Assembly: GCA_017547585.1 (NCBI GenBank)
Contig: JAFYPH010000062.1
Location: forward strand, 1,593 to 65,592
Reading direction: 5' to 3'
Source: Bacteroidaceae bacterium
Lineage (GTDB): Bacteria > Bacteroidota > Bacteroidia > Bacteroidales > Bacteroidaceae
Length of the DNA stretch: 64,000 nt
Below the pieces are notes generated by a model that saw nothing but the letters and a program-made list of their open reading frames with translations, had not been told where the DNA came from and did no database searches. Position 1 is the stretch's first letter, and each line of letters opens with the position of its first letter. This document shows positions 36,260 to 42,262 of this stretch, piece by piece. Position numbers and translations under genes: made by a program.

Positions 36260-38062
36260 TTAATCAATTATTCTCACACCGCCCTTGTCGGCCGAGCTTA
36301 CCATGTTGGCGTATGCCTTCAGGCTCTTGGGGATTACTCTGTCGCGTGTCATGGGGAACATTTCACGCGCGGCAAGCTCCTCGTCGCTCAGTTTAACGTT
36401 GATTGCGCGGTTGGGAATGTCAATCTCTATGATGTCGCCATCGCGCAGCTTGCCTACGTTGCCGCCGGCTGCTGCCTCGGGAGAGATGTGGCCGATGCTC
36501 AAGCCCGATGTTCCGCCGCTGAAACGGCCGTCGGTGATGAGGGCGCACTCTTTGCCCAGATGGCGCGATTTTATGTATGAAGTGGGGTAGAGCATCTCCT
36601 GCATTCCGGGGCCGCCTTTGGGGCCTTCGTAGATGATGACTACCACGTCGCCGGCCTGCACCTTTCCGCCGAGGATGCCCTCAACGGCTGCGTCCTGCGA
36701 GTCGAATACCTTTGCGGTACCTGTGAATTTGAGGATGCTCTCGTCGACACCAGCTGTCTTTACAACGCAACCATCCTGTGCGATGTTTCCGAAGAGTATC
36801 GCAAGGCCGCCGTCCTTTGAATAGGCATGCTCGAGGTCGCGGATGCAACCGTTTGCGCGGTCTTTGTCGAGCGACTCCCATGTTGAGCTCTGCGAGCCCA
36901 TTACGTTGCTGAATGTATTTGCGGGGGCTGTGCCGTAGATGCGTGCAGCCTCGTCGTCGATTGTCTCGCCCAGGATGCTGTATTTTGCAATGTCCTCGCC
37001 CAAGGTTGCTCCGTCCACACGCTTAACATCTGTGTAGAGAAGGCCGCCCTTTGCGAGCTCGCCCAAGATTCCAAGGATACCTCCGGCGCGTCCGCAGTCC
37101 TCGACACTGTATTTTGCAGTGTTGGGTGCGAGCTTGCACAGACAGGGTACCACGCGGCTCAGCTTGTCGATGTCCTCCATCTTGAAGTCCACGCCTGCCT
37201 CCTGCGCTACGGCGAGAAGGTGAAGGATGGTGTTTGTAGAGCCACCCATGGCAATGTCGAGTGTCATTGCGTTGAGGAAGGCCTCGCGTGTGGCAATGCT
37301 CTTGGGAAGCACGCTCTCGTCGCCCTGCTCGTAGTATTTGTATGCATTCTCTACGATGAGCTTGGCAGCGTCTTTCATCAGCTGCTCACGGTTAGTGTGT
37401 GTGGCAAGAATTGTGCCGTTGCCGGGCAACGAAAGGCCGATGGCCTCGGTGAGTGCGTTCATACTGTTCGCTGTGAACATTCCCGAGCAGCATCCGCAAC
37501 CGGGGCACGAGCGCTTCTCAACCTCGGCAAGCTCTTCGTCCGACACTGAAGTGTCTGCGCCTTTTACCATTGCCGAAATAAGGTCGAGCTTCTCGCCTTT
37601 GTATTTTCCGGCCTCCATGGGACCACCCGATACAAAGACGGTGGGGATGTTCAGGCGCATAGATGCCATGAGCATTCCCGGGGTAATCTTGTCGCAGTTA
37701 GAGATACATACAAGCGCGTCCACCTTGTGGGCGTTGCACATGTACTCGACGCTGTCGGCGATGATGTCACGCGAAGGCAATGAATAGAGCATTCCGTCGT
37801 GTCCCATCGCAATTCCGTCGTCGATGGCTATAGTGTTGAACTCAGCCGCATAGCAGCCGAGCTTTTCAATCTCTTTTTTTACAAGCTGTCCCGCCTCGTG
37901 CAGGTGAGTGTGTCCGGGAACAAGCTGTGTGAAGGAGTTTGCAATGGCAATGATGGGCTTGCCGAACATCTCACGTTTCATTCCGTTGGCAATCCACAGA
38001 GCTCTAGCTCCTGCCATTCTTCTGCCCTCGGTGCATTGTGCACTGCGTAATTTGTTTTTCAT
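36260..38062 (-). CDS. ilvD: Dihydroxy-acid dehydratase
   Basis: 600 aa; IlvD/Edd motifs ([43 protein letters not shown]). Confidence 0.95.
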
Positions 38063-38076
38063 AACTTTTTTATATC

Positions 38077-38109
38077 AAAAAAAACCTTTCTCAATCAATG
38101 AGAAAGGCC
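38077..38109 (-). terminator. Attenuator terminator in the ilv leader
   Basis: On the minus strand: cctttctca-ttgat-tgagaaagg followed by eight T. It ends 15 nt before the ilvD ATG and lies downstream of the leader peptide. Confidence 0.65.
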
Positions 38110-38148
38110 TGTTATTTATATTTATAAATGCACAGCCACTCTCTCCCA

Positions 38149-38208
38149 TTAATTTGATAGGATAACCACCACGTTAAGTAGTAAAGTTGAAGAGTTGCCT
38201 GTAATCAT
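38149..38208 (-). CDS. ilv operon leader peptide, 19 aa (MITGNSSTLLLNVVVILSN)
   Basis: Hand translation of the reverse strand gives ATG...TAA. Eight of nine consecutive residues (LLLNVVVIL) are Leu/Val/Ile. It sits between a -7 box (38242-38249) and the attenuator hairpin. Too short for the ORF track. Confidence 0.6.
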   Translation of the reverse strand: MITGNSSTLLLNVVVILSN

Positions 38209-38241
38209 ACTTCTATGAATTTGGGTTCTTAAAAATGTACG

Positions 38242-38249
38242 CAAATATA
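38242..38249 (-). promoter_or_regulatory. -7 promoter box (TATATTTG on the minus strand) of the ilv leader/operon
   Basis: The plus strand reads caaatata. The leader ATG is 34 nt downstream of the box. Confidence 0.5.
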
Positions 38250-38434
38250 CTCTCTTTTTTTAGTATGACAAAAGAATCATGATAAAAATCGGCTTTTGCG
38301 GACAAAAAGAATGCTTTTTAATAAGGTAAAAGAGCTATTTTGATGTTTTTTTGAACTTTTTCGCCTATTTCGGTTTTATTTCAGAATTGGTGTTGAAATT
38401 TGTATCAGACAAAAACAATTAAACAATTAAGATT

Positions 38435-38875
38435 ATGAGAACATTATTGGTAGCCGTTATTTTGGCTTTTTCTACAGGAGTTGCAGTGGTCAATGCAGAT
38501 AATGACAGAGTGGTAACAAAAAATGCTCTTCCCGCAAAAGCGCAGGCTTTCATCGCCGAGTATTTCGCCGGAAAGGATATTGTTGCAGCAAAAGAGGAAC
38601 GCGAGTTCAGAGTGAATAGTTTCGAGGTTCTTCTCACGGACGGAATAAAGTTGGAATTCTACAAGAATGGTGCGTGGAAAGAGGTAGATTGCCGCAACAA
38701 TGCAGTGCCTGCGGGTATCGTTCCTGCGAAGATAACATCTTATGTGAATGTACATTACCCGGGAACGAATATTGTGAAAATAGATTTCGACAAATACGAT
38801 TACGAGGTTAATCTCTCCAATGGTCTTGAGCTTACTTTCAACAAAAGATTCAAGATTGTGGATGTTGACAATTGA
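38435..38875 (+). CDS. PepSY-like (putative beta-lactamase-inhibitor-like) periplasmic protein
   Basis: 146 aa with a signal peptide. Repeated LP.KA..FI...F...I......EV.L.DG..LEF module, typical of the Bacteroidetes PepSY-like family. Confidence 0.7.
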   Translation: MRTLLVAVILAFSTGVAVVNADNDRVVTKNALPAKAQAFIAEYFAGKDIVAAKEEREFRVNSFEVLLTDGIKLEFYKNGAWKEVDCRNNAVPAGIVPAKITSYVNVHYPGTNIVKIDFDKYDYEVNLSNGLELTFNKRFKIVDVDN

Positions 38876-38908
38876 TAAATTTGAATAACTGATAATATGG
38901 AACTTTAA

Positions 38909-38944
38909 GAGGCTGGTTTTCGACGATGGGCGAAAATCAGCCTC
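38909..38944. terminator. Strong hairpin between the PepSY-like gene (+) and the radical-SAM gene (-)
   Basis: 14-bp stem gaggctggttttcg / cgaaaatcagcctc (one G-U pair). It overlaps the last codons and stop of the minus-strand gene. The T-tracts are weak, so terminator function is uncertain. Confidence 0.4.
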
Positions 38945-39623
38945 CAACGCCTAAGTCTGTATTGTTCAGCAGAATCTCGGCCTTCGTCGAGCGCTCGGCC
39001 TCGTGGTAAATATTATTTATGAACCAGTGGGCAAGCTCGTCGTCGCGCTTGACGTCGGTGCTGTTGTTGCAGAATACGTTTATGCTGTAGTACTCAAATA
39101 GTTTCTCGGCTTTTTGAATGTCGCTGATGATGCGCTCGCGGCTCTCGCCCTCGGTGCAGCATAGCAGGCAGACGCCTTGAAAATATTTTGCAACATCTTC
39201 GGCCGTCACGCTCTCGGGCACGCCTTTGTTCCATCGTTTGCGTTGCTTGCCGTCGAAGCTCTCGATGCCGCAGCGGAACTTCACCTTCAGCGGGGCAAAA
39301 TAGTCGGCAAACTCGGCGAGGCGGTGGCGGTACATATAGTGCATTTCGAACCACAGAGTGTTGATGTTCTTCTCTGTGGCCACCTTTTTTATCAGCTTCA
39401 GCGTGTCGGCGTCAAGCTCGAGGCCCGACCCCGAATTTATAATGTCGAGAATGCCGTAACAGCCTGTCACTTTGCTCAATACCTCTTCGTTCAGCCTGTA
39501 TGGATTTTCGCTTGTGTCAGCGTGGTAGTCGCAGAAAGTGCATCTTCCCCATCGGCAGCCGCGGCCCTGCAGCAGCACAAATTCGCGCGGCATTTTTGTG
39601 TGAATCACAGAGTAGCGTTCCAT
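38937..39623 (-). CDS. Small radical-SAM-type enzyme with a CX4CX2C cluster motif
   Basis: 228 aa; FVLLQGRGCRWGRCTFCDY near the N-terminus, a GSG-containing segment (IINSGSGLE), and a fold length consistent with a partial TIM barrel. Starts 2 nt after the stop of the YhhQ-like gene. Confidence 0.65.
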   Translation of the reverse strand: MERYSVIHTKMPREFVLLQGRGCRWGRCTFCDYHADTSENPYRLNEEVLSKVTGCYGILDIINSGSGLELDADTLKLIKKVATEKNINTLWFEMHYMYRHRLAEFADYFAPLKVKFRCGIESFDGKQRKRWNKGVPESVTAEDVAKYFQGVCLLCCTEGESRERIISDIQKAEKLFEYYSINVFCNNSTDVKRDDELAHWFINNIYHEAERSTKAEILLNNTDLGVGG

Positions 39624-39625
39624 GC

Positions 39626-40297
39626 TCAGAAACTGTTTCTGTATTTTTTAAGCAAATGGATTGCAGCGTAGGCCATGGGGGTGCCCATCGTTGCCTCGAT
39701 TATAAGTTTACCGAAATATTGGAAAAGCAGCATCATTATAAGCTCGCGTGTGGATACTACTCCTGCAAATGCAATGAGTACAAACGGCAGTGTGTCAAAA
39801 AGATAGCCCACCATTGAACTTCCTATTGTTCTCACCCACAGACGCTTGCCTTTCATGCGCTCCTTTATCTTCTCCATCACCCATGCGTTTGAAAGTTCGC
39901 CCAGCAGAAAGCCCGCCAGCGAGCCGAGTACTATGCGCGGAACGTACGAGAAAATGTGGTTGTAGGCGTTTGCTGTCTCCGAAAGATATTCGGGCGATGG
40001 CAGCCACACTCCAATCTGCGTGCACACTACAAGAATGATGTTGCAGCAGAATGTTGCCCAGATTACGCGCTTCGCCGTGCGGAATCCCCACAGCTCCGTG
40101 AGTACGTCGCCCAGCATATAAGCGAAAGGAAAGGTGATTGTACCTGCGTCAAAGTAGAAGAGGTCGGCGAGGCCGATTACTTTGACAGCCATGATGTTAG
40201 AAACTAAATAGAGCGTTACGAAAAGCGCAGTGACTATCATCAGCGCATTTCCGCCTGTTGCTCGGTTTTTTGAAGGGTTGTCCGATACCTTATGCAT
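39626..40297 (-). CDS. yhhQ: YhhQ/VUT-family queuosine-precursor transporter
   Basis: 223 aa with about 6 TM segments. Family motifs ITFPFAYMLGDVLTELWG and SSMVGYLFDTLPFVLIAF. Confidence 0.8.
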   Translation of the reverse strand: MHKVSDNPSKNRATGGNALMIVTALFVTLYLVSNIMAVKVIGLADLFYFDAGTITFPFAYMLGDVLTELWGFRTAKRVIWATFCCNIILVVCTQIGVWLPSPEYLSETANAYNHIFSYVPRIVLGSLAGFLLGELSNAWVMEKIKERMKGKRLWVRTIGSSMVGYLFDTLPFVLIAFAGVVSTRELIMMLLFQYFGKLIIEATMGTPMAYAAIHLLKKYRNSF

Positions 40298-40319
40298 AAT
40301 GTCTTTTGTTTTTCGCCTG

Positions 40320-40327
40320 CAAAATTA
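40320..40327 (-). promoter_or_regulatory. -7 promoter box (TAATTTTG on the minus strand) for yhhQ and the radical-SAM gene
   Basis: The plus strand reads caaaatta, 23 nt upstream of the yhhQ ATG. Confidence 0.45.
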
Positions 40328-40356
40328 ATGTAACTGCGGTGGAGAACAAAATAAAA

Positions 40357-41253
40357 TTACCTCTTTTTCTCGTAGACTCTAAAGTCGGCAAGGTCGATGC
40401 TTTCGTCCTTGATGCCGTTGTCGGGGCGGTCGTTGCCGTCTCTCATCTTGCGGCCGTAGCTGCGGTAGAGTCCGAATTTGTTGCGTATGTTCGTCGCTCC
40501 CGTGCGCCAAAGGTCGATGCCTTTGAACTTTTTGTCTATTAATATCTTGCCGTCGCTCATGCGCTTCATCTTTATTTTGAACGCGCCATCGTGCTTGTAG
40601 TGCATTTCTGTGGTTACCTCTATCCACTGCCCCTCAAAGTCGCTCAGCGGAAGGTTGTCGACGAGCACTCCTCGGCTGCTCTCGCGTGTGTCGCCTGTGT
40701 GTATCACCTGAATGCGGCGGTTGCTGCCATCCTTGTTGCAGCGGGTGCTTATCGTTATCAGCGGCGCGCCGTTGTTGCCCTCCTGTGCCTTCAGCTGGTG
40801 AATGTGGCAGAATTTTGTGCTTGCGCGGAATCCTGTGGGCAGTCGGAACTTCCATTTGAGAATCTGTCTCTCGCCGATGTTTCCGTTCAGGTGACGCCAC
40901 CGCTCGGCTGTCAGACTTTTCATTTCGTTGCGCTGGCGGTCTTCTTTCTTTCCTCTGTCACCGTCAAGATGTTCAGCATTAGCATGAATGGAGAAACGGA
41001 AAATATACTCTCCAAGCTCTTCGTCGAAAATAACTTCGCAGTGTGTGGCATCGGGGTGGTCGTTGGGCGAAATATTCGGGTGCTCTGTGTAGTTCCATCC
41101 TGCGCGGCCCATCAGTCTGTTAATCTCTTTGTGGTCTTTCCCCATCAGGCTTTCGTCGGCCCGAAGCGAACTTTTCAGGCTGTATCTGTTTGTGCTGCAC
41201 GATGCGCACAGGCATATTATCGACAGAATACCTATAATATATATGTTTCTCAT
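40357..41253 (-). CDS. Lipoprotein with a concanavalin-like polysaccharide-lyase-type domain
   Basis: Lipobox ICLCASCS. The pattern HIHQLKAQEGNNGAPLITIS..., WIEVTTEMHYKHDGAFKIKMKR and KFGLYRS resembles the heparin-lyase-I-like Polysacc_lyase family. Confidence 0.5.
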   Translation of the reverse strand: MRNIYIIGILSIICLCASCSTNRYSLKSSLRADESLMGKDHKEINRLMGRAGWNYTEHPNISPNDHPDATHCEVIFDEELGEYIFRFSIHANAEHLDGDRGKKEDRQRNEMKSLTAERWRHLNGNIGERQILKWKFRLPTGFRASTKFCHIHQLKAQEGNNGAPLITISTRCNKDGSNRRIQVIHTGDTRESSRGVLVDNLPLSDFEGQWIEVTTEMHYKHDGAFKIKMKRMSDGKILIDKKFKGIDLWRTGATNIRNKFGLYRSYGRKMRDGNDRPDNGIKDESIDLADFRVYEKKR

Positions 41254-41299
41254 TTTTCGGACTTTTTAATTACTAACGTCCCAAATACTCTTTTTATTA

Positions 41300-41331
41300 T
41301 TTGTGCTTGTTGATATCTATTGCTACTTTTG
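41300..41331 (+). promoter_or_regulatory. Consensus Bacteroides promoter (TTTG, 20-nt spacer, TACTTTTG) for the WYL regulator gene
   Basis: TTTG at 41300-41303 and TACTTTTG at 41324-41331. The ATG is 22 nt downstream. Confidence 0.55.
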
Positions 41332-41353
41332 CCGAAGAAGAGAAAAATGAATC

Positions 41354-42262
41354 ATGGATCAGCCGAAGATTGAGCGTTTGCTACGATTGATAAAGTTGTT
41401 GACGGGTAACGTCAACTATACTGTCGACGAGATTGCCCGCAAATTGGAAATGTCGCGTCGCACAGTCTATCGCTATATAGACACTCTAAAGTCGGCGGGC
41501 TTTGTTATCCGCCGCGTGGACGACTCCTTCCATATGCTCAAAGAGAATCATCGTCTCGATGATATTGACAAGCTCGTGCACTTCAGCGAGGAAGAGGGCG
41601 CGCTTGTGAATCGTCTCATCGACGGGCTCGACGACACTAATATGCTCAAGCTCAATCTGCGAAAAAAGCTGGCGGCTGTCTACAATTTTACCTCGCTTGC
41701 CGATTGTGTAGTAAAAAAAGATAGTGTGACAAACACTCACGAGCTTATTTCGGCCATCGAGGGGCGCAGACAGGTGGTGCTGCGCCGTTACTCGTCGTCG
41801 AACAAGGGTGACGTGCGCGACAGGGTGGTGGAGCCTTTCGAGTTTACAACCAACTATATACAGGTGTGGTGCTACGAGCCGCTGACGCGCATGAACAAGC
41901 TCTTCCGCGTTTCGCGCATAGGCTCGGTCGAGGTTACCGACGCTGCGTGGGAGTTCGAGAGTGAACACCGCAGCGCAAAGATGGACATTTTCCGCACCGG
42001 CGGCAGCGAGGGCAAGCGCGTGCAGCTGGAGCTGGGAGTGATGGCGAAGAATCTTCTGCTCGAAGAGTATCCTCTCGCCGTGCGCGACCTTTCGCCCATT
42101 CCCGGTACAGAGCGCTGGTTGCTCGACACTGTTGTCTATCGTTACGAGGGTGTGGGACGTTTCGTCATCGGCCTTGCCAACGATATTGTCATCCGCGAGG
42201 GCGACGGCCTCAAAGATTATCTGCGCGAGTTTGTTGCCGACCACTGCAAGGCTCTATTTTAA
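41354..42262 (+). CDS. HTH plus WYL-domain transcriptional regulator
   Basis: N-terminal HTH (ERLLRLIKLL...YTVDEIARKLEMSRRTVYRYIDTLKSAGF). Central WYL-type segment (VVLRRYSSS...RVVEPFEFTTNYIQVWCYEP...KLFRVSRI). C-terminal extension. Confidence 0.8.
   Translation: MDQPKIERLLRLIKLLTGNVNYTVDEIARKLEMSRRTVYRYIDTLKSAGFVIRRVDDSFHMLKENHRLDDIDKLVHFSEEEGALVNRLIDGLDDTNMLKLNLRKKLAAVYNFTSLADCVVKKDSVTNTHELISAIEGRRQVVLRRYSSSNKGDVRDRVVEPFEFTTNYIQVWCYEPLTRMNKLFRVSRIGSVEVTDAAWEFESEHRSAKMDIFRTGGSEGKRVQLELGVMAKNLLLEEYPLAVRDLSPIPGTERWLLDTVVYRYEGVGRFVIGLANDIVIREGDGLKDYLREFVADHCKALF

Follow-up and report, generated by a model that had tools for sequence, protein, structure and literature searches.

A yhhQ-queL gene pair in a Bacteroidales genome as a probable two-gene operon for indirect queuine salvage

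Layout of the yhhQ-queL locus

Two adjacent genes on the minus strand of the window (the whole 64-kb stretch of DNA that was analysed) encode a putative queuosine-precursor transporter of the YhhQ family (QPTR, Vut_1) and a 228-aa protein of the radical-SAM type (Table 1). The TGA stop codon of yhhQ is followed by the dinucleotide GC and then by the ATG of queL, leaving the 2-nt spacer between the two genes that the initial annotation had reported. The affiliation of the upstream gene with the YhhQ/VUT family, which had been proposed at the same time, is borne out by the matches of its product to PF02592 (E 3.5e-47, 161 bits against a cut-off of 27.2) and to TIGR00697 (119 bits against a cut-off of 51).

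Table 1. Coordinates of the genes and sequence features at the yhhQ-queL locus (positions in the window)
Feature	Position	Strand	Basis
yhhQ / QPTR (Vut_1), putative queuosine-precursor transporter, 223 aa	39626..40297	-	PF02592, TIGR00697
queL, radical-SAM queuine lyase orthologue, 228 aa	38937..39623	-	6P78 homology, AlphaFold/Foldseek
CRWGRCTFC codons (Cys23, Cys28, Cys31), CX4CX2C [4Fe-4S]/SAM cluster motif	39531..39557	-	direct sequence reading
Gene junction TGAGCATG: yhhQ stop, 2-nt spacer, queL start	39621..39628	-	direct sequence reading
TAATTTTG, match to Bacteroidetes -7 promoter box	40320..40327	-	motif match only

Within the 59-nt intergenic gap ahead of yhhQ, the octamer TAATTTTG lies 22 nt upstream of the ATG and fits TAnnTTTG. 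The -7 box assigned to the pair in the initial annotation is therefore present as a motif match, but this single instance is weak evidence alone because the window holds 57 such matches compared to 35 expected by chance; backing for it comes from related loci, 18 of 28 of which carry a TAnnTTTG box no more than 120 nt upstream of yhhQ. We infer that yhhQ and queL are transcribed from this box. A search of window positions 38000-42000 gave no Rfam match at E <= 1, whether to a preQ1 riboswitch or to any other family, no preQ1 riboswitch reached the gathering score in 20 related loci, and scans for sigma-70 promoters and terminators around the yhhQ-queL pair gave nothing exceeding chance.

Beyond the gap, a gene for a 298-aa polysaccharide-lyase-like lipoprotein (40357-41253) separates yhhQ from an HTH-WYL regulator (both within window positions 40357-42262). 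The regulator gene is divergent and directly adjoins yhhQ in the two closest relatives (loci L011 and L012, at distances of ~70 and ~185 nt), and it is not present in the remaining 21 congener loci. Either the lipoprotein gene was inserted in this genome or else it was lost in L011 and L012.

Sequence, fold and conserved residues of the 228-aa protein

The queuine lyase QueL is described in two reports as regenerating preQ1 from queuine for a canonical bTGT, which constitutes indirect salvage (PMC11130926; 10.1101/2023.12.05.570228), and the same reports cite Yuan et al. 2019 for the proteins of Clostridium spiroforme (PDB 6P78) and C. difficile (CD1684). When solved structures were searched with the 228-aa ORF, 6P78 ('Queuine lyase') was the single strong match (E 6e-49), and the alignment runs end to end, from residues 1-227 of the query to residues 23-250 of the 6P78 chain. 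An AlphaFold model of the ORF, built with a 23-sequence alignment as input, attained a pLDDT of 96.2, and Foldseek aligned this model to 6P78, the C. spiroforme enzyme solved with SAM and queuine bound, at TM 0.94, with an RMSD of 1.6 Å and ~39% identity. By contrast, the folds of SuiB, LipA, MoaA, Elp3 and MiaB matched the model at TM ~0.5-0.6 only (E >= 1e-4), with the next-best match at ~0.55. The comparison with queuine lyase and with Elp3-type folds that had been proposed for this ORF thus sided with the lyase.

We considered the possibility that the ORF instead represents an unrelated radical-SAM family (RaSEA, Elp3/YhcC-like or RiPP maturase) whose proximity to yhhQ is incidental. The curated models point weakly in this direction, since the best NCBIfam match is RaSEA TIGR01210 (31 bits) and the ORF also matches PF04055 (Radical_SAM, 22 bits), but both matches remain far under their cut-offs (the equivalog cut-off of 212 bits and 29.5 bits, respectively). 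The direct match to 6P78, the poor agreement with the Elp3, SuiB, LipA and MoaA folds and the recurrence of the yhhQ linkage across lineages (see below) all argue against such a family, and we consider it exceedingly unlikely: rather than clustering with unrelated radical-SAM proteins, the ORF matches QueL both in sequence and in fold, which effectively refutes this reading. No Pfam or NCBIfam model puts a name to these QueL proteins, and their source labels are 'radical SAM protein' or 'hypothetical protein'.

The cluster motif CRWGRCTFC, at residues 23-31 of the ORF, had been read correctly as CX4CX2C in the initial annotation, but its interpretation as a deviation does not stand. The equivalent motif of 6P78 is CIWGKCSFC; C23, C28 and C31, along with K133, are invariant in a diverse alignment of 23 family members (alignment A1), and the three cluster cysteines are also invariant in all 28 Bacteroidales copies. 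Because it is invariant in the diverse alignment and present in 6P78, the CX4CX2C spacing is a signature of the QueL family and no anomaly. The family is a compact one, comprising 328 cluster representatives out of 1.84 billion at E <= 0.001. Its Bacteroidales clade retains 36 of 40 strongly conserved positions and shows clade-wide changes at four near-invariant ones (T122S, L131W, G156C and Q160D/E), with Q160 replaced by D or E in each of the 28 copies. Judged by sequence and modelled structure, the 228-aa ORF is a full-length orthologue of the known queuine lyase QueL and no new enzyme, and the protein would be predicted to convert queuine to preQ1.

Gene linkage, queuosine pathway and transporter subgroups

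Of 24 other species of the genus, 23 were found to carry queL, each with yhhQ immediately upstream. An evenly drawn sample of 300 other Bacteroidales genomes yielded queL in only four, which come from three other families and have genomes of 2.0-2.1 Mb; yhhQ adjoins it in all four, and queC was found in none of them. The yhhQ linkage is consequently not confined to this genome: the pair is adjacent in 28/28 Bacteroidales genomes with queL, at a junction spacing of -8 to +4 nt and often with the overlap ATGGATAG (8 nt), and the genes that flank the pair differ among congeners. Outside the order, six cases among QueL relatives with 40-45% identity were informative. In four of them a Vut_1 gene is the neighbour, with both gene orders represented, while queL stands alone in the remaining two. 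On the basis of this recurrent linkage across lineages, the yhhQ-queL pairing appears to be a general feature of the QueL family. The type of transporter, which had been highlighted as differing from that of C. difficile, is therefore no peculiarity of this locus, as pairing of QueL with YhhQ and not with the ECF component QrtT is common in the family.

The initial annotation had also suggested that the ORF be examined for co-occurrence with yhhQ and with the absence of preQ0/preQ1 synthesis genes. As to yhhQ, the association is complete in the 28 Bacteroidales genomes in which queL was found, as yhhQ lies beside queL in each of them. The queC-less pattern is likewise present, and in the sister genus of the same family queC is present and queL is not, but confinement of queL to genomes that lack queC is statistically not strong because most of the order sample (224/301) is without queC anyway, with queC found in the other 77 genomes.

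The genome itself is a MAG of 2.26 Mb in 65 contigs, and since it is only 85% complete (84.9%), missing pathway genes are given as not found rather than as absent. Near-complete congeners lessen the concern about incompleteness: none of five congeners, each 94-98% complete, has queC above cut-off, and none of five queL-bearing genomes (three of them congeners, the others from different families) has queF above cut-off. Genes for tgt, queA (three copies) and queG (one copy) are present on contigs other than that of the window, and none of the three occurs within the 64-kb window, in line with their reported absence from the neighbourhood of the pair. The yhhQ gene of the window is the sole Vut_1 gene found in the genome. 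Searches for queC returned only 26-bit partial matches in larger PP-loop-type ORFs and no true queC, and neither queF, queD and queH nor a QueK-family nucleoside hydrolase were found in the 85% complete MAG; Qng1 (PF10343) had no match either, though the control likewise gave no match anywhere. The TGT of this genome keeps Cys158 (in DEC) and Ala232-Val233 (in LAVGE), as in the preQ1-type TGT of Z. mobilis. These residues separate bacterial preQ1 enzymes from queuine-type enzymes. Taken together, the gene set of the genome corresponds to indirect queuine salvage as it has been published.

The three queA copies encode full-length QueA proteins (PF02547; G000:C44:19503-20546, C17:50257-51435 and C8:108597-109826; L005-L007). 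Their scores are 395, 332 and 322 bits, and the corresponding ORFs are 356, 413 and 448 aa long. Two queA copies appear in gut Bacteroidales rows of Dataset S1 of PMC11130926.

The same data bear on whether the enzyme acts on queuine itself. One alternative is a lyase of the QueL family whose substrate is now another 7-deazaguanine (e.g. epoxyqueuine, glycosylated queuine or the nucleoside), in which case the salvage step carried out by the pair would be related to the known one but distinct from it. Such a shift could account for the clade's own substitutions at the four near-invariant positions, including the replacement of Q160 in all 28 copies, for the identity of only ~39% to 6P78, and for the fact that no QueK or Qng1 hydrolase that would free queuine from the nucleoside was found (with the reservation about the Qng1 control noted above). 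Against this, the backbone of the model is nearly superimposable on that of queuine-bound 6P78, 36 of the 40 conserved positions are retained and the downstream genes are those of the standard preQ1 route, and we therefore regard a shifted substrate as very unlikely.

Among characterised QPTRs, that of E. coli carries preQ0/preQ1 (PMC5372724) and that of C. trachomatis carries queuine (10.1101/2023.12.05.570228). The YhhQ encoded in the window scores only 53 bits against the E. coli-type model NF008406, whose cut-off is 252, and its N-terminal motif MxKVSxNPxKNR recurs in 28 related loci. The queL-linked YhhQ proteins constitute their own subgroup within the order, with 73-78% identity among queL-bearing genomes, 53-56% identity to the copies in three genomes in which queL was not found, and no more than 41% identity to all other YhhQ copies of the order, including the commoner type, which is encoded directly beside queC in at least 16 queC-bearing genomes. 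This split would be in keeping with a queL-linked YhhQ that prefers another substrate than the remaining copies do, plausibly queuine. The three genomes with copies at 53-56% identity (G204 and G318 of family f44 and G205 of family f45) could harbour an intermediate subgroup or reflect decay of the cassette. The queC-adjacent YhhQ copies (e.g. at G156:C2:586805-588272 and G276:C1:3114733-3116008) are 29-37% identical to the YhhQ of the window.

A further alternative is that YhhQ imports preQ1/preQ0, as in E. coli, and that QueL only recycles queuine that arises intracellularly or enters otherwise, the two genes being merely co-expressed functions of the Q pathway. TIGR00697 indeed names the family merely as queuosine precursor transporter and, because YhhQ also adjoins queC in the order, the family is not inherently queuine-specific. 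On the other hand, the queL-linked YhhQ forms a subgroup separate from the queC-linked type, its tight and conserved coupling to queL in 28 loci speaks for one substrate stream common to both, no hydrolase that makes queuine intracellularly was found (QueK; for Qng1 the control was also without match), and imported preQ0 would be useless without queF, which was not found here. Import of preQ1/preQ0 uncoupled from QueL thus seems highly improbable to us.

Proposed indirect queuine salvage and comparison with known systems

The identities of the two genes, their conserved coupling and the fold of the enzyme are established in this analysis. As the best explanation for them we favour, with considerable confidence, an operon of two genes that serves indirect queuine salvage. 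YhhQ, as a QPTR family member, would import the free base queuine and possibly preQ1 too; QueL, a radical-SAM enzyme with a [4Fe-4S] cluster bound by the CX4CX2C motif, would cleave the cyclopentenediol moiety off queuine to yield preQ1; the canonical preQ1-type TGT would put preQ1 into tRNAs with GUN anticodons; and QueA followed by QueG would complete queuosine. The core idea of the initial annotation, a queuine/preQ salvage pair, is thereby upheld. The analogous or new step that it put forward finds no support, given the orthology of the ORF to QueL (E 6e-49, TM 0.94).

With regard to the history of the pair, a quick, unrooted ML tree placed all Bacteroidales QueL proteins in one clade (SH-aLRT 95), with copies from other families branching among those of this genus. 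The gene for the nearest outside representative (P0121) adjoins spoIIIA genes, which points to a spore-forming Firmicute as its host. The tree pattern and the variable flanks together hint at lateral spread of a cassette and, because the tree is quick and unrooted, we make no claim on the donor nor a firm one on the direction of transfer. In six congeners (L026, L027, L029, L031, L032 and L033) a tRNA-Arg(ACG) gene precedes the pair by ~50-130 nt. Since tRNA genes are common integration sites, this position fits a mobile cassette; a link of the neighbouring tRNA gene to Q-tRNAs was ruled out, as the tRNA is tRNA-Arg(ACG). It is conceivable, though in our estimation doubtful, that the pair is a self-contained, laterally mobile Bacteroidales cassette from Firmicutes-like donors that was acquired by small-genome lineages not making preQ0, that its YhhQ subgroup is a queuine-specific importer and that the clade-wide QueL substitutions (notably Q160 to D/E) adapt the enzyme to a queuine-type substrate that differs somewhat.

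Irrespective of its history, yhhQ-queL is an ordinary, poorly annotated operon that joins the known QueL to a YhhQ-type importer. Its value lies mainly in annotation and ecology, and it reveals neither a new enzyme nor a new pathway. The pair should let a small-genome gut member of the Bacteroidales that is unable to make preQ1 recycle queuine for tRNA queuosine. With the ORF named as QueL, this genus stands out, together with a few further small-genome Bacteroidales, as dependent on gut queuine. Other Bacteroidales in the samples searched more often make preQ0 themselves, and the PMC11130926 supplement lists queC in 304/354 oral Bacteroidales genomes. The pair also offers a clean natural system for asking whether a YhhQ subgroup is queuine-specific.

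Compared to the characterised QueL, the enzyme described here is alike in its length class (~230 aa), the CX4CX2C motif, the full-length alignment (E 6e-49) and the fold (TM 0.94), as well as in its genomic setting, a genome in which queC, queD and queF were not found and a canonical TGT is present. It differs in sequence (~39% identity, with four clade-specific changes at conserved positions) and in its host, a member of the Bacteroidales, an order in which QueL was found in only 4/300 other sampled genomes. In C. difficile, queK, qrtT and queL form one operon (PMC11477304). That preQ1-I riboswitch-queK-qrtT-queL arrangement resembles the present locus in combining a transporter and QueL in one operon for preQ1 salvage from queuine, whereas the transporter is a YhhQ/QPTR protein here and the ECF S-component QrtT there, the search of the present genome yielded no queuosine hydrolase of the QueK type, and the locus is without a preQ1 riboswitch. 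With the YhhQ of E. coli (PMC5372724) and the queC-linked YhhQ of the order the transporter shares the Pfam family PF02592, but it is set apart from the former by its NF008406 score (53 bits versus the cut-off of 252) and from the latter by an identity of at most 41%. Lastly, direct salvage in Chlamydia trachomatis, which combines a queuine-transporting YhhQ with a queuine-type TGT (10.1101/2023.12.05.570228), is similar in the queuine import by a YhhQ-family protein that we propose here. By contrast, the TGT of the present genome is of the preQ1 type (Cys158, Ala232, Val233) and, because it keeps these residues, queuine would first have to be converted by QueL, that is, by the indirect route.
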